Shown here: positions 2,167 to 30,479 of the stretch, in pieces
Position numbering within the stretch: the first letter of the stretch is position 1
Layout of the letters: every line of letters begins with the position of its first letter
Source: a virus
Lineage: Duplodnaviria; Heunggongvirae; Uroviricota; Caudoviricetes
Virus record (IMG/VR): IMGVR_UViG_2563366799_000006
Strand: one strand, 5' to 3'
Length of the DNA: 49,446 nucleotides
Notes under the pieces: model-generated
Told to the model about the DNA's origin: nothing
Seen by the model: the letters and a program-made list of their open reading frames with translations, nothing else
Database searches by the model: none
Program-made: the position numbers and the translations under genes

Positions 2167-4977
2167 TTATGCCTGAGTACGCAGCGCTTCAAGGCGGCGC
2201 AGGTCGAAGTCGTTCAGTTCGTCGGTGTAATCAGCGGTGATCGGCGCTGGCCATTCGCCAGTGTCAAAGCCGGTAGCGATAGCGCGCATCGCCTTGCGGT
2301 ACTCGAGCATGCCCAGCTCTAGCAGTTCAGCGGATGCCTCGATGATGGCGATCCAGTGGTAGTTCTCGTCTTTGTTGACGAAAATCCAGAAGAACTGGTC
2401 AAGTGCCGCGGTCTCGCAATACATGGCGGCGCTCAGGTGATAGTCACGGTCGATGATTTCCCGGTGCAGTTTGGCGCGCAGACCTTCCTGCTTAATGTTC
2501 CACATGCTGATGGTTTTAAGGTCGGCACCGATGCGTACCCCGTCCAAGTCGATCTCAAGGTCAGGACGCACGCGGACTTCAAGTCCGGTTTCGTCGTCAA
2601 AGCCAAAATAGCTCACCTCAACAGCGCGGCTCGGATGCTGAAGCAGCATCCCGGCGGTTGGGTGCTTTAGCAGGGCTTTCTGAATGGCCAGTGCGGTGCT
2701 CAGCTGCTGGCGGGTGACCAGCACTTTCCCATGCGGATTCTCGCGCCACGCATCCAACAACTCGTCGGCGAATACGGCTTCCGGATTAACAGACTTCACG
2801 GCCTGAATCAGGTCTGATTTGGTACCGGACACTTTCAGTGGTTGGGGCTTCTGCGCCTCCTGTGCAACCAAGTCAGGATTGATGATTGCCAGCTGCTCGA
2901 GCAGCGCGTCACGGCTACCGCTGGTTTTCACCTGCGGCGGCAGGGTGGCGTTGTACTCTTTGATGCAGGCTTTCATCGCCGCTGCGGTCTGCTTCTGGTC
3001 CGCTTCGATCCGCTGGTACTCTTCTGGCAGCGACATGTAGCTCTGGCCAGTTTCCTCGACTGAACCACCCAGTGGCACCTGAGCAGGCAGTGTGGCGTTG
3101 TATTCTTCCAACAACGCTTTGATGTCGTCGGCGCTCAATTGCGCTGGCAGGCTGGCGTTGTACTCATCGATAAACGCGCGGATTGTTGCCGTTGTGGTGA
3201 ACGCGCCTTCCGGGATCATCGGTTCAACGCTGAACTCTTCATCAAGCTGCTCTGGCTGCAACGCAAGGCCGTGCACCAGGTTACCCATGTCCAGTACCGG
3301 AGAACGCTCTTTGGTGATCGTTTTGGCAACGTGGCGCGCATTGAAGTACATCAGCGATACACGCGCATCTTTCACCTGGGTTGAGCTGATACCGTTCGCT
3401 GCGTGATAAACCTCGTTCGGCAACCCTTCATAGCGGCCTGGCTCAAAGTAAGCAGGGTAAACAACAGCCGGTTCGTCAGAATGAGATTCTGGCTCGGTTT
3501 GTGCCGCAACTGGTTCAGTTTGGTTTACAGAATCGCTGTTTTGGCTAACAGAATCCGCATTCTGGTTTACATCGGCCTGCTGGCCGGTATGTGACTCTTC
3601 ACCAGTTTCCAGACTGCTTTCTCCTGACTGCACTTCATCACCAGCCTGTTCTTCATCACTGACAGTTTCTTCCATCTGCACATTGCTGGTGGTTTCCTCA
3701 TTAAGTGGTGAACGGTCATCTGTTTGTGTTTGTTGATCACCCATCAGGCCATCAATGGAGAATACGCCGTTGCCCATGTTGGCGATTTGTGGCTGTTTAG
3801 CAGCTGTTTTCTGCTCTGCAGCGACCTGCTCATTAAACTCATTTTCCCAACTGACGTCCGGCGCATGACCAGCATCAGCCAGCGTTTCTTCTGAGGGGTT
3901 TGAGTGGTCATTTTCGGTTAGATTGGCATTGATATATGCCCGCAACCGCCCAGGAAAGTTAACCAATTCGGATGATGTGCCGCGGATGAGTGCAAAGATG
4001 GCGGCGCGTGAATAGTCCAGGATGCCAGCGGTTTTGCGCAGCGCCTCAGACCATTCGCTGAACGGACTTTCTTTCTTGCTGACAATCTCTTTAGCGCGGC
4101 GGTAGACCCCACCAGGTATGTCGTAGATATTGAAATCCATTGGCAAGGTGGCCAGCGCAATTTCAACATCCAGAGTGTCCAGTGTGTGGACGTAGTCGGT
4201 ATTGCGATCGGTCTTATTTCCACCGCCAGCATTGGTTTTGACGTCAGTGCGTTGAATCTGCACAACACGGTTGCCTTTCTGCCATTCCTTGACCAGCAGG
4301 CCACGGTCGATGTAATCAGTGTTGAACCACACCGTCAGGAACTGGATAACTGTTGCCAGTTCCGGTTTTTTACCGTCGACAGGGAAGGCTTTCTTAACGG
4401 CATTCACGACTTTATGGATATCGTGCTCAATGGCTTTTTTGAATGCTTCCACATTCTCAGCAGCCAGCAGCAGGTTTTGGGCGTACGCGTTATCAGTGTC
4501 CATCTCAAGGCGGACAATCTCGTTTTTCTGACCAGCGTCGACGTGATAGAGATATTCACCATCACCGATGAACTGAGCCAGTACGCGCTGACGGAATGGC
4601 AGGGTGGCAACGACGATCAGGTTCGGCTGCTCTGACTGCTGAGATTCTTCTGCGGTGCTGTCTTCAGTATCCGCGTCGTCGACAGACTCATCTTCAGCCT
4701 GTTGTTTAACATTCCAGGTGCGCTGGTCTTCAGCCAGTTCGTAACGATCGCACCATGTGAAATCAACTTCGCCTTCTTCTGGCAGGTCGTTGTACACCGG
4801 GAAATCAGTGCGAATAGGTTTGGCGTAGTCCTTACCACGGCCGGTTTCGATGCCTGCATCTTCCAGTGCAACATCCAGCTGCAGGTTGGCGCGAGCCTCG
4901 GTTTTCGCAGTGAACCAGACCACTGCATCTTGTTTTCCGGATTTCTGAGTGGCTTTAACCACATTAAAGAATTCCAT
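2167..4977 (-). CDS. recE: RecE-like exonuclease VIII (C-terminal PD-(D/E)xK nuclease domain, acidic linker, internal repeats)
   Basis: 936-aa ORF; C-terminal region has RPD...GADLK, a PD-(D/E)xK-like motif; long D/E/S/Q-rich low-complexity linker; three copies of an EYNA(S/T)LP(A/P)QV peptide motif; immediately upstream of recT. Confidence 0.7.
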   Translation of the reverse strand: MEFFNVVKATQKSGKQDAVVWFTAKTEARANLQLDVALEDAGIETGRGKDYAKPIRTDFPVYNDLPEEGEVDFTWCDRYELAEDQRTWNVKQQAEDESVDDADTEDSTAEESQQSEQPNLIVVATLPFRQRVLAQFIGDGEYLYHVDAGQKNEIVRLEMDTDNAYAQNLLLAAENVEAFKKAIEHDIHKVVNAVKKAFPVDGKKPELATVIQFLTVWFNTDYIDRGLLVKEWQKGNRVVQIQRTDVKTNAGGGNKTDRNTDYVHTLDTLDVEIALATLPMDFNIYDIPGGVYRRAKEIVSKKESPFSEWSEALRKTAGILDYSRAAIFALIRGTSSELVNFPGRLRAYINANLTENDHSNPSEETLADAGHAPDVSWENEFNEQVAAEQKTAAKQPQIANMGNGVFSIDGLMGDQQTQTDDRSPLNEETTSNVQMEETVSDEEQAGDEVQSGESSLETGEESHTGQQADVNQNADSVSQNSDSVNQTEPVAAQTEPESHSDEPAVVYPAYFEPGRYEGLPNEVYHAANGISSTQVKDARVSLMYFNARHVAKTITKERSPVLDMGNLVHGLALQPEQLDEEFSVEPMIPEGAFTTTATIRAFIDEYNASLPAQLSADDIKALLEEYNATLPAQVPLGGSVEETGQSYMSLPEEYQRIEADQKQTAAAMKACIKEYNATLPPQVKTSGSRDALLEQLAIINPDLVAQEAQKPQPLKVSGTKSDLIQAVKSVNPEAVFADELLDAWRENPHGKVLVTRQQLSTALAIQKALLKHPTAGMLLQHPSRAVEVSYFGFDDETGLEVRVRPDLEIDLDGVRIGADLKTISMWNIKQEGLRAKLHREIIDRDYHLSAAMYCETAALDQFFWIFVNKDENYHWIAIIEASAELLELGMLEYRKAMRAIATGFDTGEWPAPITADYTDELNDFDLRRLEALRTQA
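2931..3178. repeat. Three imperfect direct repeats (~22-bp core GGCAGGNTGGCGTTGTAYTC) inside recE
   Basis: Copies at about 2931-2969, 3080-3118 and 3140-3178 on the + strand; they encode the repeated EYNA(S/T)LP(A/P)QV motif. Confidence 0.6.
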
Positions 4978-13775: not shown

Positions 13776-14426
13776 ATGAGCGACAACCAGTTAGCACCTT
13801 GTTGGGAATTTCAGCCTTACCTTGCTGAAAGCAATGTTCGTCAGTTGTTAGCGGAAATTGCTAATGTACTCGAGCAATTGTACTACCACAAACACACACT
13901 GGACAGTAACTGGTCCGAAGGTGTAAGGGCTTATGATTGGGTCAGAAATCATTTGATTCAAAGTGAAGGGACACTGCCGGGTCTGGAAATGGTTTCGAAG
14001 GGACTGGATTATGTGGTTGCGTTAAATAAAGTGCCGCTGCAGTTCTCCAAAGATTGCATTAATAACCCGAAGAAGAAGCATCGCCTTCTTCGAAATAGGG
14101 TGGAGCATGAGCAACTTTCATTGTTCGGTGAAACTGAAGCCGAGCAAGATATTACATGGCGGATCATCGCCGAACCATTTTTATCCGATGAAGAAGATGG
14201 CGAGCTGGAATCAACATTGCCTCGCTGGGAAGTGGCTTTAGTTGGGTTTAACGCATATGGTGCCCAGATCAGTATGGTTTCACACCAATCTACTGCTTCA
14301 GCGCCGCTTATGTCTCTTGATACCAACACTCTTCCGGATGAAGCTGAGATTGGCAAAGCCTCTCTTCGCCGCCGTAAAAAAGATCAAGATTTGGATGTGA
14401 GCAGTAATGGAACATCAAGTGAATGA
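13776..14426 (+). CDS. Hypothetical protein, upstream partner of the HTH-ImmA/IrrE metallopeptidase
   Basis: 216 aa; no motif recognised; 3' end overlaps the next gene by 20 bp. Confidence 0.6.
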   Translation: MSDNQLAPCWEFQPYLAESNVRQLLAEIANVLEQLYYHKHTLDSNWSEGVRAYDWVRNHLIQSEGTLPGLEMVSKGLDYVVALNKVPLQFSKDCINNPKKKHRLLRNRVEHEQLSLFGETEAEQDITWRIIAEPFLSDEEDGELESTLPRWEVALVGFNAYGAQISMVSHQSTASAPLMSLDTNTLPDEAEIGKASLRRRKKDQDLDVSSNGTSSE

Positions 14427-15510
14427 CTTTGCTGAGTATCGTGGGGATAAGCTCAAATTAGCCAGAATGGCTGTTGGGCTCTCCTGCGAAGAGTTAGCGG
14501 AGAAAATTGGTAAAACAAAACAATTCGTTAGCAAATTGGAAAAAGGGTTTAAACCATCAGAACAGTTGTTAGAATTAATCTCATCTGCGCTGATGATTAA
14601 ATCTGATTTCCTATTTACTGAACGAAAATATGCTTTAGAAAGCGATGTTTGCCATTTTCGGAGTAAAAAATCGAGAACCCAAACATTAACCAATAGTGTT
14701 CTGGCAAGGGCGGAGATTCTTAACATTATAATCTCTGCCGTTGAGGGAGAAATCGAGTTTCCTGATGTTTGCATACCTGAGCACCCCGGTGCTGAATTGC
14801 TGACTCCAAATGATATTGAACGTGTAGCGGAAGACTGCAGAAGAGCATGGAACTTAGGGCTGGGACCTATATCCTCAATGGTCAAACTGGCTGAGAGTTT
14901 GGGGGTTATTGTTGCTCATGTGACAGGAGTGGATGACCGCGTAGATGCTTTTACTGTTCATAACAACAGGCCAGTAATCATCCGAAATAACGTCAAAAAG
15001 AGTATATGCAGATTCCGATCAGATTTAGGTCACGAATTGGGGCACTTGGTTATGCACGAAGGTATAACCACAGGAGATAAAGTGACTGAATCGCAAGCGG
15101 ATCGTTTTTCAAGCGCGTTGCTAGTTCCTCGATTGTCCTTTATTAAAGAGTTTCCCCGTATACGAGGAAGACAGTTCGATTGGAACGCCCTAGTTGAGTT
15201 TAAGCTTCGGTGGAAGATTAGTCTTAAAATGTGCATTTACCGAGCAACAACTCTAGGCCTGCTGACGCAGGAGCAGGCAAGAACAGGTTATATGCATTTG
15301 AACTCTAAAGGATATACGAAAGTTGAACCAGGAGATGAATTTATTCGCCCGGAAGAACCGAGTATGTTAGCTGAGGCGATTGAAATGCTGGATGATGCAA
15401 CATGGATGAGCATTCTCATGAAAACTGGTTTAAGCCAGGAGTTGGTTAGGGAGTTATTCTCGGTAAACCGCCCACTGTCAAATCCAAGAAATCTACTTCA
15501 ACTGGTTTGA
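14407..15510 (+). CDS. XRE-family HTH fused to ImmA/IrrE-family (COG2856) zinc metallopeptidase
   Basis: 367 aa; N-terminal HTH (LSCEELAEKIGKTKQFVSKLEKG); HEXXH motif HELGHLVMHEG. Confidence 0.8.
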   Translation: MEHQVNDFAEYRGDKLKLARMAVGLSCEELAEKIGKTKQFVSKLEKGFKPSEQLLELISSALMIKSDFLFTERKYALESDVCHFRSKKSRTQTLTNSVLARAEILNIIISAVEGEIEFPDVCIPEHPGAELLTPNDIERVAEDCRRAWNLGLGPISSMVKLAESLGVIVAHVTGVDDRVDAFTVHNNRPVIIRNNVKKSICRFRSDLGHELGHLVMHEGITTGDKVTESQADRFSSALLVPRLSFIKEFPRIRGRQFDWNALVEFKLRWKISLKMCIYRATTLGLLTQEQARTGYMHLNSKGYTKVEPGDEFIRPEEPSMLAEAIEMLDDATWMSILMKTGLSQELVRELFSVNRPLSNPRNLLQLV

Positions 15511-22620: not shown

Positions 22621-23109
22621 ATGGCTGCATTAAAGGGAGAGGTGAAAGCGTTTATCGTTCAATCGCTTGCATGCTTCGACACGCCGTCGCAAGTGGTCGA
22701 TGCCGTCAAAAAAGAATTTGGCATCACGATCCCCCGTCAGCAGGTTGAATCTCACGACCCGACGAAAGCAAACGGCAAAGGTCTGGCGAAAAAATGGGTC
22801 GAGATGTTCAACGAAACCCGCGAGCGCTTCCAGACGGAAATTGCAGAAATCCCGATCGCTAATAAGGCTTATCGGCTTCGCGTACTGCAACGAATGTCTG
22901 TGACCGCAGAGAACATGAAAAACCTCGGCATGACAGCTCAGCTTCTCGAACAGGCAGCAAAAGAAGTTGGGGATGTCTACACCAACAAACAGAAGGTTGA
23001 GCAAAGCGTTGTTGCCACCCATAACGTTATGCCGGTCCCGTCCTGCGATAACGTCGACGACTGGGAAGCAGCAGCACAGAAACAGCAGAGCGAGGTTCTT
23101 GGTGGATGA
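22621..23109 (+). CDS. Terminase small subunit (putative)
   Basis: 162 aa; stop overlaps the TerL start; N-terminus recalls DUF2280-type small terminase. Confidence 0.55.
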   Translation: MAALKGEVKAFIVQSLACFDTPSQVVDAVKKEFGITIPRQQVESHDPTKANGKGLAKKWVEMFNETRERFQTEIAEIPIANKAYRLRVLQRMSVTAENMKNLGMTAQLLEQAAKEVGDVYTNKQKVEQSVVATHNVMPVPSCDNVDDWEAAAQKQQSEVLGG

Positions 23110-24677
23110 ATTACAAAGCCGTCTGGAAACCTTTGCCGGGATCGCAATCGCTCTCCCTGAGTTGCCCGTGTAACGAAATCCTCTACGAAGGTACGCGAGG
23201 CCCCGGTAAAACCGCCGCGCAACTGGCGCGCTTTCGTCGCCTGGTTGGTCTGGGCTATGGCTCGTTCTGGCGTGGCGTCATTTTCGATACCGAGTATAAA
23301 AACCTCACCGACATCATTACCCAGTCAAAGCGTATGTATCGCCTGTTTAATGACGGTGCACGCTATCTGGCGTCAGCATCTGAATTGCGCTGGGTATGGC
23401 CGACTGGCGAAGAGTTGCTGTTCCGCTTTGGGAAGGAAGAGGGGGATTACTGGGATTACCACGGTCAGGAGTTCCCGTTCATCGGCTTTAACGAGCTGAC
23501 AAAGCAGCAGTCTGCTGAGTTCTACGAAATGATGTTCTCCTGCCGGCGCTCATCGTTCCGGCCGGAGAACTACCCGCTGGCTAACGGCGGTCTGTTGAAG
23601 CCAATCCCGCTCGAAACATTCAGCACGACCAACCCATTCGGCATCGGCCACACCTGGGTGAAGAAACGCTTCATCGAGCCAGCGCCCCGCGGCACCATCA
23701 TTCGTGAAACGCAGCAGGTGTTTAACCCGCAAACTGAGCGCGAAGAGGATGTGACGCTGACGCGCGTGGCTATTCACGGCTCGTTCAAAGAGAACCCGTA
23801 TCTGGATCCCCAGTACATCGCAACGCTGATGGCCATCAAAGACCCGAACCGCCGCAAAGCTTGGGTAGAGGGCTCCTGGGATGTCACCAGCGGTGGGCGC
23901 TTTGACCACCTGTGGAATGCATCGCTGCACGTCATTAAGCCGTTCCGCATCCCGGATAGCTGGACGGTTGACCGTTCCCATGACTGGGGTGAGTCGAAGC
24001 CGTTCTCTAACCTCTGGTGGGCGCGAGCCGACGGTACTGCCGCAGAACTGCCTGATGGTCGCCAGTTCTGCCCGCCTGCCGGGTCGCTGATCCTGATTGG
24101 CGAGTGGTATGGCTGTCCACCTGACGAGCTGAACAAAGGGCTCAATATGAGCTCGACAAACGTCGCCAAGGGTGTGGCCTGGATTGATAAGCGGCTGATG
24201 GGCGAAGAGCTGCCTGAACCTGAAGAGATAAAACTCAATGGGATAACTCAGGGGCAACTGAACATCATGCCCGGTATCTGCAAAAAGGTTGTGCCCGGAC
24301 CTGCTGACGGGGCTATCTACAACACCGGTGATGACGAATTATCTATTGCCCAGAAAATGGAATCCCAGGGCGTTAAATGGGTGCCATCCAACAAGAAGCC
24401 GGGTTCACGCGTGAACGGCGCGGCACTGTTTGCTGACATGCTGGAGGCCGTCATTGAGGGCAAGAAGCTGGAATCAGGTATGCCAGAGAAACCAGCATTC
24501 TACGTGTTTGACTACTGCCGGGGCTGGATTAGCCGTGTTCCGGTTCTCGTTCGCGACAGTAAGAACCCTGACGATGTAGACACACAGCAGGAAGATCACG
24601 ATTGGGATGGCACGCGCTATGCCGTCCTACATTCACCGCCGAAGAAAGTCGGCAAAGTCACCAGCCTGAGGCTCTAA
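23106..24677 (+). CDS. Terminase large subunit
   Basis: 523 aa; Walker A GTRGPGKT; C-terminal nuclease-type acidic motifs (DHDWDGTRYA). Confidence 0.9.
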   Translation: MNYKAVWKPLPGSQSLSLSCPCNEILYEGTRGPGKTAAQLARFRRLVGLGYGSFWRGVIFDTEYKNLTDIITQSKRMYRLFNDGARYLASASELRWVWPTGEELLFRFGKEEGDYWDYHGQEFPFIGFNELTKQQSAEFYEMMFSCRRSSFRPENYPLANGGLLKPIPLETFSTTNPFGIGHTWVKKRFIEPAPRGTIIRETQQVFNPQTEREEDVTLTRVAIHGSFKENPYLDPQYIATLMAIKDPNRRKAWVEGSWDVTSGGRFDHLWNASLHVIKPFRIPDSWTVDRSHDWGESKPFSNLWWARADGTAAELPDGRQFCPPAGSLILIGEWYGCPPDELNKGLNMSSTNVAKGVAWIDKRLMGEELPEPEEIKLNGITQGQLNIMPGICKKVVPGPADGAIYNTGDDELSIAQKMESQGVKWVPSNKKPGSRVNGAALFADMLEAVIEGKKLESGMPEKPAFYVFDYCRGWISRVPVLVRDSKNPDDVDTQQEDHDWDGTRYAVLHSPPKKVGKVTSLRL

Positions 24678-24681
24678 ACCC

Positions 24682-26085
24682 ATGCCTGATATTTCAACCC
24701 CCAATCTGGACTATGGGAACATGGTGCAGGCGTGGGACATCAACGACGCCCTGATGGGCGGCACGCTCTATATGCGACAACTGGGCGAGGCATATCTCCC
24801 GCGCTGGCCGAAAGAAGACAAAGAGGACTATAAAAAACGCCTCTCTGTGGCCACGCTTTTGCCCGCCTACGAAGAGACCATCAACCAGAACGTTGGCCGC
24901 GTATTCGCTGAGCCGATCCAACTGGGCGAGAACGTCCCGGATGCGCTGCGCGAGTTCTCGAAGAACGTTGACCTGGAAGGCAGTCGCCTCGATGTCTGGT
25001 CGCAGGCGTTCTTCAGCCTGGCAATGCAGTATGGCCTTTCGCACGCTCTGGTGGATTATCCCCGGGTGGACGCCGAAAAGGTGAAGACCAAGGCGGATGA
25101 AAAGGCTATCGGCGCGCGGCCGTACGTCACCATGCTAAATCCCCGTCAGGTGATCGGCTGGAAGTCAAAGATAACCGGCGGCAAGGTGGTGCTCACCGAA
25201 CTGCGCATCAAAGAGGTGGTAGTCGAAGACGGCGATGATTTCGGGCAAACAAAGGTCGAGCAGATTCGACTGCTGACGCCCGGGCAGGTGCAGATTTACC
25301 GCAAGGCCACTGGTGCCGACGGCCAGGCGAACTGGACGCTGCACGAGGAATGGCAAACATCCCGCAGGGATATTACCCTGGTTACGCTCTACACCAAGCG
25401 CACTGGGTTTATGTGCGGTTCTCCGCCGCTGTTGAACATGGCGCTGTTGAATGTGAAGCACTGGCAGAGCCAGAGCGAGCAGGACAACATTCTGCACGTC
25501 GCGCGCGTCCCTCTGCTCACGGTATTCGGGCTAGAGGATGGGCAGGAACTGGTAATTGGCTCTTCGTCTGCAACTCAGTTCTCCGATCGACAGAAACAGG
25601 GATTGGAATATGTCGAGCATACTGGAACCTCAATTAGTGCCGGTAAAGAGTCGCTAACCGACCTGGTGGAGCAGATGCGCCAGGCAGGCGCGAAACTGCT
25701 GCGCACTGACAACACCTCAACCAAGTCTGTTGACCAGACCTCAGAAGAGAAGATGCAGGAGCAGTCACCGCTCTACACCATGGCAACCAGCCTAGAGGAT
25801 GCGATCGACAATATCCTGCAGATTATGGCTGAGTACATCGGTGAATCCGAAGGTGGTAACGTCGATGTCCGCACCGAGCTGGATGTCGAGTCGAAAGAGT
25901 TCAATCCTCCTGCTGCACTGGCCATTCAGTCGCTACGTCAGGGCGGTGACCTTCGCCGCATAGATGCGATTAAAGCGCTGCAGAAGCTTAACCTGATTGA
26001 TGCAGACGCAGACCCAGAAAAGGTCCTGGACGAGTTATTGGCTGAATCCTCCTCGCTGGATACCAGAACGATAGGCGAGGTGTGA
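24682..26085 (+). CDS. Portal protein
   Basis: 467 aa; immediately after TerL; size and position typical. Confidence 0.75.
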   Translation: MPDISTPNLDYGNMVQAWDINDALMGGTLYMRQLGEAYLPRWPKEDKEDYKKRLSVATLLPAYEETINQNVGRVFAEPIQLGENVPDALREFSKNVDLEGSRLDVWSQAFFSLAMQYGLSHALVDYPRVDAEKVKTKADEKAIGARPYVTMLNPRQVIGWKSKITGGKVVLTELRIKEVVVEDGDDFGQTKVEQIRLLTPGQVQIYRKATGADGQANWTLHEEWQTSRRDITLVTLYTKRTGFMCGSPPLLNMALLNVKHWQSQSEQDNILHVARVPLLTVFGLEDGQELVIGSSSATQFSDRQKQGLEYVEHTGTSISAGKESLTDLVEQMRQAGAKLLRTDNTSTKSVDQTSEEKMQEQSPLYTMATSLEDAIDNILQIMAEYIGESEGGNVDVRTELDVESKEFNPPAALAIQSLRQGGDLRRIDAIKALQKLNLIDADADPEKVLDELLAESSSLDTRTIGEV

Positions 26086-26086
26086 T

Positions 26087-27190
26087 ATGGCACGCACCGT
26101 CAATGACCGCCTGCAGGACGAGACCATAGCGCATGGCCTTTATGTGACGCGCTACGGCACCGGCGTCGCCCGGCGCATGGTCGCGTTGCTGAATAGGATG
26201 GATGCTGACCTGGCCGCAAAACTGCTGGTGCTGCTGGACGGAAAGCGCGCTGATACCTATAGCGCCCGTCGTCTGGCATCGCTGCTGGCTGGCGTGCGCG
26301 ACCTGAATCAGCAGGCCTATGAACCGGTTAATGCTGCGCTGACGCGCGAACTGACGCGCTACGTTGAATATGAGACCGGGTATCAGCTGGACCTGTTCAG
26401 CAGCATCATCCCTAAACAGATCCTCAAGCATGTGCCGCTCCAGAGCATTGCGGCAGAACAGGTTTACGCCTCAGCAGTGGCGCAGCCCTTTCAGGGGCGG
26501 TTGCTGAAAGAGTGGAGTCAGAAGCTTGAATTGGATCGGCTGGACAAAATCACCAACGCTGTACGCTCCGGTTTCCTCCAGGGCGAAACGGTAGAGCAGA
26601 TTGTCCGGCGCGTAGCGGGTACGCCGCAGAGAAATCGCGAGGACGGGGTGATCAACACATCCCGTCGCGACCTGGCGGTGGTGACCCGCACCGCGGTGAA
26701 TCACATGGCCGCCACGGCGCGTCAGGAATTCGCCCAGGCAAATAGCGATATCGTGAAGGCCAAACAGTGGTCCTCAACCCTGGATACGCATACCAGCCAG
26801 TGGTGCATCATCCGCGACCGCAAACTCTATACGCTCGATGGCAAGCCGCTGGGGCATGAAATTCCCTACCTACGCGGGCCGGGAAAAATCCATTTTCTAT
26901 GCAGGTCCTGCGAAATCCTGCTCACGAAGTCGTGGGAAGAATTGCAGATAGCGTCAGGCGAGCTGAGTAGCGCCACACGCGCCTCAATGGACGGCCAAGT
27001 ACCAGCGCATACCAGCTACGCCGATTGGCTCACCCGGCAGCCATACGCGCGGCAGGAGCAGGTGCTGGGCGTTACCCGCGCCATGATACTTCGGGACGGC
27101 AAAATCACCGTGCCGGAGATGTTCAACGATGCCGGGGAGTTCCTGACCCTGGACGAACTGCGCCGCGTGGATGCATCGGCTTTTGAATAA
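26087..27190 (+). CDS. Head morphogenesis protein (minor head protein, SPP1 gp7-like)
   Basis: 367 aa; follows the portal gene. Confidence 0.6.
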   Translation: MARTVNDRLQDETIAHGLYVTRYGTGVARRMVALLNRMDADLAAKLLVLLDGKRADTYSARRLASLLAGVRDLNQQAYEPVNAALTRELTRYVEYETGYQLDLFSSIIPKQILKHVPLQSIAAEQVYASAVAQPFQGRLLKEWSQKLELDRLDKITNAVRSGFLQGETVEQIVRRVAGTPQRNREDGVINTSRRDLAVVTRTAVNHMAATARQEFAQANSDIVKAKQWSSTLDTHTSQWCIIRDRKLYTLDGKPLGHEIPYLRGPGKIHFLCRSCEILLTKSWEELQIASGELSSATRASMDGQVPAHTSYADWLTRQPYARQEQVLGVTRAMILRDGKITVPEMFNDAGEFLTLDELRRVDASAFE

Positions 27191-27210
27191 CTGAATAAGG
27201 TAATAAAACA

Positions 27211-27675
27211 ATGACTCAACATATTGGCGTGAAGCTCATCAATGCTTACCCGATGACCCGTCTGGCATATAACGACTTTCGTGGTTGGGAGTTACCAAGT
27301 GACGAAAACGGAAGTGATGAAGGTTATCTCGTCGAGTATCTGGATGGCGGAAAGCCAAATACCGATCGCTTCAACGGGTATGTGAGCTGGAGTCCGAAAG
27401 ATGTGTTCGACAAAGCCTACCGACCAGTGGCGGGGCTTAGCTTCGGACTGGCTGTCGAAGCCCTGAAATCAGGCAAGCGTGTCACCCGCGCAGGCTGGAA
27501 CGGCAAGGGCCTGTGGCTTGAGCTGGTCCAGCAGTCGCCATCTGTGGACCTGCCGTACATTCGTTTAATTTATCCGGTGCCGGGCAATGGTGCTATGCCA
27601 TACCCAAATGGCGCTCGCGTGCCTTGGGCACCAAGCCAAACCGACGTCTTGGCTGATGACTGGCAAATTCTCTAA
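27211..27675 (+). CDS. Two-domain protein with C-terminal DUF2829-like (Tad2-like) domain
   Basis: 154 aa; C-terminal half FGLAVEALKSGKRVTRAGWNGKG...WAPSQTDVLADDWQIL matches the recalled DUF2829 signature; extra N-terminal domain of about 75 aa. Confidence 0.5.
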   Translation: MTQHIGVKLINAYPMTRLAYNDFRGWELPSDENGSDEGYLVEYLDGGKPNTDRFNGYVSWSPKDVFDKAYRPVAGLSFGLAVEALKSGKRVTRAGWNGKGLWLELVQQSPSVDLPYIRLIYPVPGNGAMPYPNGARVPWAPSQTDVLADDWQIL

Positions 27676-27698
27676 ACCAGTTGCTTGGGGGGTGGTCT

Positions 27699-27908
27699 AT
27701 GCGAGATGACGATTTTCACCATGTGGGCGATGGCCGCGGTAAGCGCCGAGTGTTCGTTAACGGCAACGAGGTCAAACGCTGCATATGGGCGGATGTTAAG
27801 CGAGGAATCGCATGCTTCTATCCATATCCACTCCGGGTCCACAAGCGCAAGCGGGATGAGGTCTATTCCCGCAAGCTACGCGGCGTAGTAACCGTCGAAT
27901 TTATCTAA
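27699..27908 (+). CDS. Hypothetical small basic protein
   Basis: ATG at 27699 (ORF track 27681 uses TTG); 69 aa, Lys/Arg-rich. Confidence 0.4.
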   Translation: MRDDDFHHVGDGRGKRRVFVNGNEVKRCIWADVKRGIACFYPYPLRVHKRKRDEVYSRKLRGVVTVEFI

Positions 27909-28016
27909 CAGGCTTCCTCCGGGTGGCCTTTTTTATGCCTGCCGCTGAGCGGATGCGACGCGGTGCCCGGGTCGGATGACCCATTACGTATGGCCGGAAG
28001 GCTGGAGCAAAAAACA

Positions 28017-28769
28017 ATGAAACTGAAACTTGATGCTAACGGAAATGTGGTCGTTGAAAACGGTATGCCTGTGTACATCCATGATGATGGCAAAGAGATC
28101 CCGTTCGATGCGGTCGCAGCGATGACCAAAATCACCTCACTGAATGGCGAGGCGAAAACTCACCGCGAAGCGAAGGAAGCGGCGGAAGCCAATCTCGCGA
28201 AATTCTCGGGCATCACCGACCCGGCCAAGGCGCTCGAAGCCCTGGAGATGATGACCAAAATCGACCAGAAAAAACTGATCGATGCTGGTGCCGTTGACCA
28301 GGTAAAGGCGGAGATCACCAAAGTTTTCCAACAGCAGCTGGACGAAGCGAACAGCAAGACCCAGCAGCTGGAAACTCAACTCTACGACGAGATGATCGGC
28401 GGCCGCTTCGGTGGTTCGAAATTCATCTCCGAGAAGATGGCGATCCCGGCTGAGTTCGTGCGCTCCCACTTCGGGCAGAACTTCAAAATCGAAGATGGCA
28501 AGGTCGTGGCTTACGACGGGCAGGGCAATAAGGTGTTCTCCCGTACCAAACCCGGTGAACTGGCTGGCTTCGATGAAGCGCTGGAATCTCTGGTCGAGTT
28601 GCATCCGCAGAAAGACTACATCCTCAAAGCGTCCGGCAACAGCGGCGGTGGTTCTCACCAGTCGCAGCACCAGGCCGGGCAAAAAACCATGAAACGCGAT
28701 GCGTTTGATTCCCTGGATAACGCTGGCAAGCAAGCAGCGCTGAAAGACGGCGTCAGCATCGTCGATTAA
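28017..28769 (+). CDS. Scaffolding protein (putative; alternative start 27963)
   Basis: ATG at 28017 with GGAG RBS; helical, charged protein immediately upstream of the major capsid gene. Confidence 0.55.
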   Translation: MKLKLDANGNVVVENGMPVYIHDDGKEIPFDAVAAMTKITSLNGEAKTHREAKEAAEANLAKFSGITDPAKALEALEMMTKIDQKKLIDAGAVDQVKAEITKVFQQQLDEANSKTQQLETQLYDEMIGGRFGGSKFISEKMAIPAEFVRSHFGQNFKIEDGKVVAYDGQGNKVFSRTKPGELAGFDEALESLVELHPQKDYILKASGNSGGGSHQSQHQAGQKTMKRDAFDSLDNAGKQAALKDGVSIVD

Positions 28770-28786: not shown

Positions 28787-29926
28787 ATGGCAGGCAATAC
28801 CCTTACTGGTCTGATCCCGACCATCTATACCGCGCTGGACGTAGTGTCCCGCGAGCAAACTGGTTTTATTCCTGCGGTGGCGCGTGACGCGAAAGCGGAT
28901 GCTGCTGCAAAAGACCAGACCGTACGTGCGCCAGTCGCACCTGCAGCCACTACTGAAGATATTGTCCCTGGTCCGTCAGCACCTAATTCTGGCGACCAGA
29001 CCATCGGTGGTGTGGATGTCAAAATCACCAAATCCAAGATGGCCCCGGTCAAATGGAATGGTGAAGAGCAATTGGCTTTGGGCCCGGCTGGTACCTACAA
29101 CACCATCCTGGCTGACCAGTTCAAGCAGGCTTTCCGAGCGCTGGCGAATGAAGTGGATGCAGACCTCGCTGCGCTGTACCTCAACTCCTCCCGCGCTGTT
29201 GGCGTGCCGAAGAATACCCCGTTCAGCATCAAAGACGATCTGACTGATGCTGCGTTGGCGCGTCAAATCCTGACCGATAACGGTGCGCCGACTACTGATT
29301 TGCGTATGGTGCTGGGTGGCGAAGCGATGGCATCCATCCGTGGTAAACAGGCTGTACTCTTCAAAGCGAACGAAGCGGGAACCGACCAGCTGCTGCGTGA
29401 AGGTGTTATCGGTCGCATCATGGGCTTCAACCTCCACGAATCCTTCAGCATCAAGCGTACCGCGAAAAGCGCTGCTGCTGGCTATAAGGTCAATGGCGAG
29501 AAGAAAGAGGGCGATATCATCATCGCTATCTCTGCCGGCACCGGCGGTATTGCTGCAGGTACTGCGGTGAAGTTCGCTGGTGATGACAATCAGTATCTGG
29601 TTGTTGCGGCTACGTCTTCCACTATCACCATCAGCGCGCCGGGGCTCCGTCAGGATCTGGCAGACCAGGCTGATGTCACTGTGTTGAGCGAATTTGTACC
29701 GAACATGGCGTTTGACCGCGGGGCATTCCTGCTGGCCAGCCGTACCCCGGCGATGCCTGAAGGTGGCGATACTGCTGATGACGTCATGAATGTGACCGAC
29801 CCGGTATCTGGCATCACCTTCCAGGTGGCGCTGTACCGCCAGTACCGTCAGGTGCGTTATGAAGTGGGCCTAGCATGGGGTGTGGCTGCTGTGGCGCCAC
29901 GTCATTCCGCCATCATCATGGGTTAA
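28787..29926 (+). CDS. Major capsid protein
   Basis: 379 aa; AGGAG RBS; follows scaffold; hairpin terminator downstream. Confidence 0.7.
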   Translation: MAGNTLTGLIPTIYTALDVVSREQTGFIPAVARDAKADAAAKDQTVRAPVAPAATTEDIVPGPSAPNSGDQTIGGVDVKITKSKMAPVKWNGEEQLALGPAGTYNTILADQFKQAFRALANEVDADLAALYLNSSRAVGVPKNTPFSIKDDLTDAALARQILTDNGAPTTDLRMVLGGEAMASIRGKQAVLFKANEAGTDQLLREGVIGRIMGFNLHESFSIKRTAKSAAAGYKVNGEKKEGDIIIAISAGTGGIAAGTAVKFAGDDNQYLVVAATSSTITISAPGLRQDLADQADVTVLSEFVPNMAFDRGAFLLASRTPAMPEGGDTADDVMNVTDPVSGITFQVALYRQYRQVRYEVGLAWGVAAVAPRHSAIIMG

Positions 29927-30167: not shown

Positions 30168-30479
30168 GTGAGCGATAAAGATATTGAGCAGGAAATTCAG
30201 GCCAAAGGCTTGAACGCGCCGCGCGTTACGCTGGGCGAGTTGAAGGCGAATATTAAGCATGCCGAGATCGTGAAGCACGTATCCGTCACCGGGCAGGTGC
30301 TTCGCTGGGCGGTCATCACCACTCAAAACGGATTCGCAGTAACAGGGAATCCGTCGTGCTCAGTTTCCTCCGCTAACGACAACGCTGAAATTGGCGAGAA
30401 AATTGCTATTGAGAACGCCGAAAGCGAGTTGTGGGCGTTGATGGGATATGCGTTAAAGCAGAAGCTTTTCGAAGCCTGA
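30168..30479 (+). CDS. Head-module protein (gp49-like, hypothetical)
   Basis: 103 aa; tightly packed after the previous gene. Confidence 0.5.
   Translation: MSDKDIEQEIQAKGLNAPRVTLGELKANIKHAEIVKHVSVTGQVLRWAVITTQNGFAVTGNPSCSVSSANDNAEIGEKIAIENAESELWALMGYALKQKLFEA

Follow-up and report, generated by a model that had tools for sequence, protein, structure and literature searches.

A Tad2-family domain joined to a widespread N-terminal module in the head-gene cluster of a lambdoid phage: a candidate anti-defence sponge

A two-module protein among head genes

A gene for a 154-amino-acid (aa) protein was analysed in a Caudoviricetes virus (IMG/VR record IMGVR_UViG_2563366799_000006). The window is the whole stretch of DNA that was analysed, 49,446 nucleotides (nt) in length. 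The protein consists of a 72-aa N-terminal module, called the N-module below, and a C-terminal domain of the Tad2 family. Its gene and a following gene for a 69-aa basic protein lie between a Mu F-like head morphogenesis gene and a scaffold-like gene (Table 1), the location given in a preliminary description of this DNA. RecE/RecT, a CI-type repressor and a Q antiterminator are also encoded in the window, which therefore represents a lambdoid temperate phage or prophage.

The open reading frame (ORF) of the 154-aa protein starts with ATG, 20 nt after the stop codon of the upstream gene. The sequence AAGG, which resembles a Shine-Dalgarno element, was read 10 nt before this ATG and 7 nt past the head-morphogenesis stop. 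The nearest sequenced relative was Escherichia phage HK639, with about 87% DNA identity around the locus (megablast; match in two pieces). The same 1.1-kb segment was found in 11 complete E. coli genomes at 98.4-98.7% identity, with the annotation 'DUF2829 domain-containing protein'.

The C-terminal Tad2-family domain

The C-terminal half of the protein is a Tad2-family domain. The preliminary description had recognised a DUF2829 (Tad2-like) signature here and named a hidden Markov model (HMM) search and a structural comparison with Tad2 as checks; both gave significant results. PF11195 (Tad2-like, formerly DUF2829) matched aa 77-154 over profile positions 2-73 of 73 with 72.4 bits (E 4.6e-20), far above chance at a gathering cut-off of 25 bits. 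In a phmmer search against PDB chains, SPO1 Tad2 (8sme) was matched at E 5.4e-11. Myroides ModTad2 (9eib, 8v3e), SptTad2 and HgmTad2/AcrIIA7 (8kbi, 9kzr) were also matched, with the alignments to HgmTad2 and SptTad2 limited to the N-terminal helix region. An AlphaFold2 (AF2) model from an alignment of 67 homologs reached a mean predicted local distance difference test (pLDDT) score of 87. Foldseek compared this model with the PDB and returned 8v3e, 8smf, 8sme and 8wje with TM-scores of 0.73-0.82, normalised by target length, at probability 1.00 and E of about 1e-5.

The ligand pocket of SPO1 Tad2 was compared at the residue level. SPO1 Tad2 contacts 1''-3' glyco-cyclic ADP-ribose (gcADPR) through W25, N26, W73, S76, T78 and D79, plus I63, T65, D67 and H71 (10.1101/2023.05.01.538930). 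The first six of these correspond to W96, N97, W139, S142, T144 and D145 in the HMMER alignment, and in the 67 homologs each of the six was either invariant or conserved to at least 90%. The gcADPR-site mutants W21A/N22A and S90A/T92A/D93A of HgmTad2 (PMC10680739) affect the same pocket positions. The GWNG and PSQTDVLA(D/E)DW pocket motifs are essentially identical between the 154-aa protein and SPO1 Tad2; near the C-terminus, PSQTDVLADDW has 10 of its 11 residues as in SPO1 Tad2.

The 154-aa protein thus agrees with SPO1 Tad2 (8SME/8SMF) in family by HMM, in sequence, in predicted fold, in small size and in being encoded by a phage or prophage. It differs in its extra N-module and in the beta2-beta5 loop region. 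In HgmTad2 and SptTad2, a long beta2-beta5 insertion makes a cyclic-dinucleotide pocket (R31, S47, F70 and N85 in HgmTad2). About 40 residues separate GWNG from W139, a length close to that in SPO1 Tad2 and far below that in HgmTad2. Therefore, a cyclic-dinucleotide pocket of the HgmTad2/SptTad2 type is not expected. The protein adds a new member to a well-known family, and RefSeq already annotates close copies as DUF2829.

Members of the two-module family

PHROG 872 matched the full length of the 154-aa protein (E 2e-60). A total of 4,932 homologs were found, the closest of which are named 'DUF2829 domain-containing protein', and tblastn matched the protein in 209 phage records, 93 of them with at least 80% of its length covered. 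The fusion to an extra N-terminal domain, noted in the preliminary description, is present; it is not peculiar to this locus and belongs to a large existing family (PHROG 872) that includes N4 gp49 and Kapi1_043. The combination of N-module and Tad2 is a widespread, uncharacterised variant; no characterisation of N4 gp49 or of the 154-aa protein was found in the literature searched.

N4 gp49 (YP_950527) has the N-module and Tad2 layout and is 43% identical over the full length (E 9e-45). N4 gp49 and its Gamaleyavirus ortholog (Bp4 orf32) adjoin the virion RNA polymerase (vRNAP) gene of lytic phages, whereas the 154-aa gene is placed in a temperate lambdoid head module. In N4-like phages, the vRNAP gene marks one end of the anti-signalling hotspot (10.64898/2026.06.04.730250). 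In the RefSeq numbering of N4, gp48 is a PF13876/Acb4 protein and gp49 is the N-module and Tad2 protein (L004 2609-3462); the two are adjacent and both of sponge families. Since gp48 carries PF13876, the Pfam name 'N4 Gp49' is mismatched with the current locus tags.

Kapi1_043 of Escherichia phage vB_EcoP_Kapi1 shows the same architecture, with 62% identity over the full length and 87% in the N-module. It is longer (173 aa), has a longer beta2-beta5 insertion and sits between lysis and terminase genes with free intergenic flanks. Kapi1_043 is reported to have the highest expression among the genes of the Kapi1 prophage and was proposed as a Tad2-like anti-defence protein (PMC12922286), whereas no promoter was evident for the 154-aa gene in the window. 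Phages Louie, Huey and Mimir124 have homologs that carry the annotation 'anti-CRISPR protein', a label that was traced to AcrIIA7.

The N-module and its partner domains

The preliminary description had left the N-terminal domain unrecognised, at about 75 aa. In agreement with this, aa 1-72 behaved as a separate module and gave no Pfam match even at E<=10 and no PDB sequence match, as a single sequence or as a profile. Its structure showed no similarity to any nucleotide-binding fold. The monomer model has three strands, two helices and an unpaired N-terminal segment, with aa 2-5 below a pLDDT of 50 in the full-length AF2 model.

The distribution of the N-module was determined in a search of 1.84 billion representative proteins. 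It was found in at least 1,498 clusters (defined at 50% identity) at E<=0.001. In the best 150 of the 1,498 clusters, the module stood at the N-terminus in 108 cases and at the C-terminus in 17; in 18 it was internal, and in 7 the protein consisted of little else. When 145 representatives were scanned with Pfam, Tad2 was found in 50, PF21825 in 36, PF13876 in 20 and the Acb2/Tad1 hairpin in 1; WDGH, AP2 and HNH domains occurred once each. PF21825 is Sequestin, a sponge for 3' cyclic ADP-ribose (3'cADPR) that was found through its fusion to Tad2 and Acb4 (PMC12265669). PF13876 is the Acb4 sponge family, directed against the cyclic-oligonucleotide-based anti-phage signalling system (CBASS; PMC11722364). 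The N-module is thus joined for the most part to validated sponge families (Tad2, Sequestin and Acb4) and once to Acb2/Tad1.

The N-module occurred in 139 INPHARED records. Between phages of different proteobacterial classes, its copies share 55-67% identity, and Arg, Lys, Trp, Tyr, Asp and Glu residues are among the invariant positions. About 28 positions are near-invariant, and these are largely polar or charged. The module is acidic, with an isoelectric point (pI) of 4.9 and a net charge of -3.

Several single proteins extend this picture. CNR35_00038 of Pseudomonas phage inbricus (232 aa; L010 2501-3199) joins the N-module to Acb4 (PF13876, E 3e-20) and Sequestin (PF21825, E 7.5e-10). Erwinia phage phiEaP8 (L008 2468-2704; AWN06211) encodes a stand-alone 78-aa N-module adjoining the vRNAP gene, in the position of N4 gp49, and stand-alone N-modules of 65-92 aa were also present among BFVD entries. 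In P26218_06 of Rhodoferax phage P26218 (181 aa; L009 2501-3046), a 67% identical N-module is followed by a C-terminal part of about 110 aa that has no Pfam match and may be a further unrecognised partner domain.

Relation of the N-module to RyR Tad

A relative of the N-module was found in RyR Tad, gp68 of Pectobacterium phage CB1. The N-module matched the gp68 N-domain over aa 1-66 in BLASTP (E 6e-6, 32% identity). An HMM built without gp68 returned gp68 as its sole match among 1,975 ORFs of the CB1 locus (E 1.4e-5), and a BFVD search tied the N-module to a Yersinia phage RyR-domain protein. By these matches, the N-module is a distant homolog of the RyR Tad N-domain (gp68 aa 1-86). Both proteins place this module before a gcADPR sponge. 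They differ in the sponge, which in RyR Tad is all-helical and similar to RyR Repeat12, and in assembly, a dimer for RyR Tad versus a presumed tetramer for the 154-aa protein.

The RyR Tad N-domain was described as an 'unknown fold' that forms a strand-swapped dimer in the crystal via beta1, which completes a five-stranded sheet; gp68_N (1-86) alone had no anti-Thoeris I activity, and gp68_C alone sufficed (10.64898/2026.06.04.730250). The gp68 N-domain is without most of the near-invariant N-module residues (R17, Y20, N21, R24, W26, D36, D45 and N50). Because the gp68 copy is degenerate, its negative result transfers weakly to the canonical module.

Other small phage modules were considered as identities of the N-module and rejected. 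By their published hallmarks, Lockin is a hexamer rich in beta structure that does not occur in INPHARED phages, and TadIV-1 is a dimer of helical fold confined to Straboviridae. The Acb5 hallmarks R10, W38 and H61 are absent, and neither Sequestin (PF21825) nor Acb4 (PF13876) matched at E<=10. PDB entry 6E3C, a filter for some Tad2 fusions in a pipeline of the Sorek laboratory, is the Dec decoration protein of phage L and unrelated. In the 2026 preprint, Tad3 was identified within the same hotspots, yet the N-domain of gp68 was still labelled an unknown fold (10.64898/2026.06.04.730250), which argues against identity of the N-module with Tad3.

Cargo slot and neighbouring genes

The coordinates of the features are collected in Table 1.

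Table 1. Features of the head-gene cluster around the two-module gene, in window positions
Feature	Position	Strand or place	Basis
Large terminase	23106-24677	upstream of 154-aa gene	Pfam/PHROG
DUF4055 portal	24682-26085	upstream of 154-aa gene	Pfam/PHROG
Mu F-like head morphogenesis protein	26087-27190	directly upstream of 154-aa gene	Pfam/PHROG
Segment replaced relative to HK639 (cargo slot)	27173..27909		pairwise DNA alignment
Shine-Dalgarno-like AAGG	27197-27200	+	read from sequence
Two-module 154-aa protein gene (stop codon included)	27211..27675	+	ORF list, sequence, PHROG 872
N-module, aa 1-72; conserved beta-alpha-beta-beta-alpha domain	27211..27426	+	
Tad2-like (PF11195/DUF2829) domain, aa 77-154; pocket motifs GWNG (aa 95-98) and SQTD (aa 142-145)	27439..27672	+	Pfam, PDB phmmer, Foldseek
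69-aa basic protein gene (phrog_3540)	27699..27908	+	ORF list, PHROG, homolog search
Intrinsic-terminator-like hairpin + U6	27910..27935	+	HK639 alignment and annotation, RNA fold
DUF6651 scaffold-like protein, matches head-scaffold PHROGs	27963-28769	downstream	Pfam/PHROG
P22-type major capsid protein	28787-29926	downstream	Pfam/PHROG
Acb4-family (PF13876) ORF, 103 aa, GTG start	30168-30479	+	Pfam 55.9 bits

In the pairwise DNA alignment, homology to HK639 ends at about position 27172, within the last codons of the head-morphogenesis gene, and resumes at about 27910 at the hairpin. Both the 154-aa and the 69-aa genes are absent from HK639, where about 170 bp stand in their place upstream of the common terminator; the moron position proposed in the preliminary description is supported by this absence. 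The HK639 slot contains an unannotated 38-aa hydrophobic ORF, MPQIMVGLVSIALGLAAIVISSRSIYEMWRFMREQKNK (L001 4118-4234; record 4785-4901), directly upstream of the annotated terminator. E. coli ET729 is also without the cassette, and a Salmonella prophage that shares the head genes holds only the 69-aa basic gene in the slot (L007 4001-4210). Since the cargo differs among relatives, the slot accepts varied cargo. These alignments indicate that the 154-aa gene is horizontally acquired cargo inserted in the head-gene cluster.

The 69-aa protein has a net charge of +8 and a pI of 10.1 and matched phrog_3540 (E 2.6e-33). It had only 15 homolog clusters, at 58-87% identity, all from enterobacterial prophages or phages. 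The small basic ORF of the preliminary description is therefore real and conserved. However, a functional coupling with the Tad2-like gene was rejected. The gene stands alone in the Salmonella slot, and a homolog lies upstream of the terminase in a metagenomic phage (L006 2570-2812), so it is independent of the Tad2-like gene.

Among the features expected of a moron, presence and absence among collinear relatives were observed and a terminator-like hairpin was present, whereas no sigma-70-like promoter was detected. The hairpin folds at -10.9 kcal/mol (z -1.5) and is homologous to the annotated terminator of HK639. A consensus scan of 26900-28200 found no sigma-70-like promoter, and the 39 inserted bases before the ATG held no convincing promoter by eye. 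From this, we infer co-transcription with the Q-dependent late operon.

The Acb4-family gene lies in a segment of about 325 bp that, compared with HK639, is cleanly inserted between a small post-capsid gene and the head-tail adaptor gene. It lies about 2.5 kb downstream of the 154-aa gene and is the second sponge-family cargo gene of the head module. In HK639-like phages, at least two slots of the head-gene cluster have thus received sponge-family insertions (Tad2 and Acb4). In the early region of the prophage, a 367-aa protein with a helix-turn-helix and an IrrE/M78 peptidase-like part is encoded at 14407-15510 (+).

Proposed function of the 154-aa protein

The 154-aa protein is probably a Tad2-family anti-defence sponge for an ADP-ribose (ADPR) signal derived from Toll/interleukin-1 receptor (TIR) proteins, with the N-module as an accessory; we give this reading a probability of about 0.7. 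By homology, aa 77-154 would assemble as a homotetramer of the Tad2 type. In pockets between its protomers, lined by W96/N97 and W139/S142/T144/D145, it would bind and sequester a TIR-made signal derived from ADP-ribose, most probably the 3'cADPR (1''-3' gcADPR) of type I Thoeris, and the Thoeris effector would then stay inactive. The N-module would be an accessory shared among signal sponges; what a distant relative of it has been shown to do is dimerise by strand swap. It may cross-brace the oligomer while its conserved charged and aromatic surface faces a second partner or ligand. The protein would probably be made from the Q-dependent late transcript, together with the virion structural proteins.

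The genomic settings of homologs support a sponge, because N4 gp49 lies by the vRNAP gene at the hotspot boundary and Kapi1_043 is highly expressed. The second sponge-family gene (Acb4) inserted downstream supports it as well. An N-terminal fusion is compatible with Tad2 function, since the Acb4-Tad2 protein of Pm86 blocks both Thoeris I and CBASS (PMC12265669).

Several points weigh against this assignment. The secondary SPO1 contacts I63, T65, D67 and H71 are not kept and are replaced by P130, P132, G134 and a gap, all in the variable beta2-beta5 region. The ligands of Tad2 homologs vary and include 3'cADPR, His-ADPR, N7-cADPR, cyclic dinucleotides and cUMP/cCMP (PMC12393519; 10.1101/2024.01.03.573942). 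Because specificity differs among homologs, the ligand is not readable from sequence. Of the five Tad2 homologs in the original tests, one failed to block type I Thoeris. Among relatives of the N-module, only gp68_N has been assayed, and it was inactive by itself; known sponge pockets are typically positively charged, unlike the acidic N-module. No promoter that would drive expression in a lysogen was detected. The literature searched contained no binding or infection assay for the 154-aa protein or any N-module and Tad2 protein, a search that did not cover the identities of 18 tested Tad2 homologs.

Alternative explanations

The main alternatives concern the N-module. In one of these, it would only dimerise or stabilise sponge oligomers, for avidity, solubility or half-life, and have no target of its own. 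The domain-swapped dimer of RyR Tad through beta1 of its N-domain and the sufficiency of gp68_C are consistent with such a role, as is the low pLDDT of aa 2-5, which is expected of a strand that pairs with another chain; furthermore, all partner domains are obligate homo-oligomers. However, these partners already oligomerise without the N-module. With partners this different, a mere dimeriser is also unlikely to have kept about 28 positions near-invariant, most of them polar or charged, and it is not expected as a stand-alone gene. A purely structural role is thus a tentative explanation.

A second possibility is that the N-module itself binds another immune signal, which would make the protein a fusion of two specificities like Acb4-Tad2 or Acb4-Sequestin. 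The partners in the 145-protein census are mostly sponges, RyR Tad and the inbricus triple fusion follow the same pattern, and Sequestin was found by the same logic of fusion to known sponges (PMC12265669). The module also stands alone in phiEaP8 and BFVD, and its conservation is extreme for a 72-aa domain. The Acb4-Tad2 (Pm86), Acb4-Sequestin (Ab09) and Tad2-Sequestin fusions likewise join a sponge to a second small phage module, with partners that overlap those of the N-module. In these published fusions, however, both halves are proven sponges, whereas the N-module half is without a demonstrated ligand. The inactivity of gp68_N, though from a degenerate copy, the net acidic charge compared with positively charged known pockets, and the lack of structural likeness to any nucleotide-binding fold all speak against a second nucleotide pocket. 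Binding of a second signal is therefore possible and somewhat unlikely. Less probable again, and unlikely on the whole, is that the N-module serves as a small SH3/Tudor-like adaptor by which the sponge would dock on a protein of the host or phage, such as a TIR sensor, an effector or RNA polymerase.

Two further explanations concern the whole protein. Inhibition of Cas9 in the manner of AcrIIA7 was suggested by the annotation of the Louie, Huey and Mimir124 homologs and by the AcrIIA7 entries 8kbi and 9kzr in the PDB search. To our knowledge, type II-A CRISPR-Cas is not normally carried by Enterobacteriaceae hosts, which we counted against this explanation. Moreover, Li et al. could not reproduce anti-CRISPR activity for HgmTad2/AcrIIA7 or other Tad2 homologs (PMC10680739). 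On these published negative data, the annotation was rejected and the activity is very improbable. A head-assembly accessory or decoration protein, to which the position between head-morphogenesis and scaffold genes and the probable co-transcription could point, is equally improbable, because HK639, E. coli ET729 and the Salmonella prophage have the same head genes without the 154-aa gene, homologs lie in non-structural regions (Kapi1 lysis/terminase; beside the vRNAP gene in N4-like phages), and the predicted fold matches Tad2, a soluble sponge.

Both the fusion pattern and the degree of conservation speak for a target of the N-module's own, whereas its acidic composition and the one negative assay speak against a classical nucleotide sponge. 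We tentatively propose, at less than even odds, that the N-module is an unrecognised, widespread counter-defence domain family that binds its own immune signal or protein, by which the 154-aa protein and N4 gp49 would be dual-function inhibitors. This proposal draws on the sponge partners, the RyR Tad copy, the stand-alone gene by the vRNAP gene and the near-invariant charged and aromatic surface. The gp68_N result was obtained with a degenerate copy and one defence system, and so does not decide against it.

Significance

The Tad2 assignment itself is ordinary and adds one more prophage-borne sponge gene. The N-module is the more useful lead, and its association with known sponge families is worth following. 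The guilt-by-fusion logic that found Sequestin in print points equally at the N-module, which the model phage N4 (gp49) and hundreds of sequenced coliphages carry without an assigned function. If the N-module only dimerises, it would be a reusable oligomerisation handle for sponge engineering. If it has its own target, it would be a new anti-signalling family, which would explain why so many sponges carry it.

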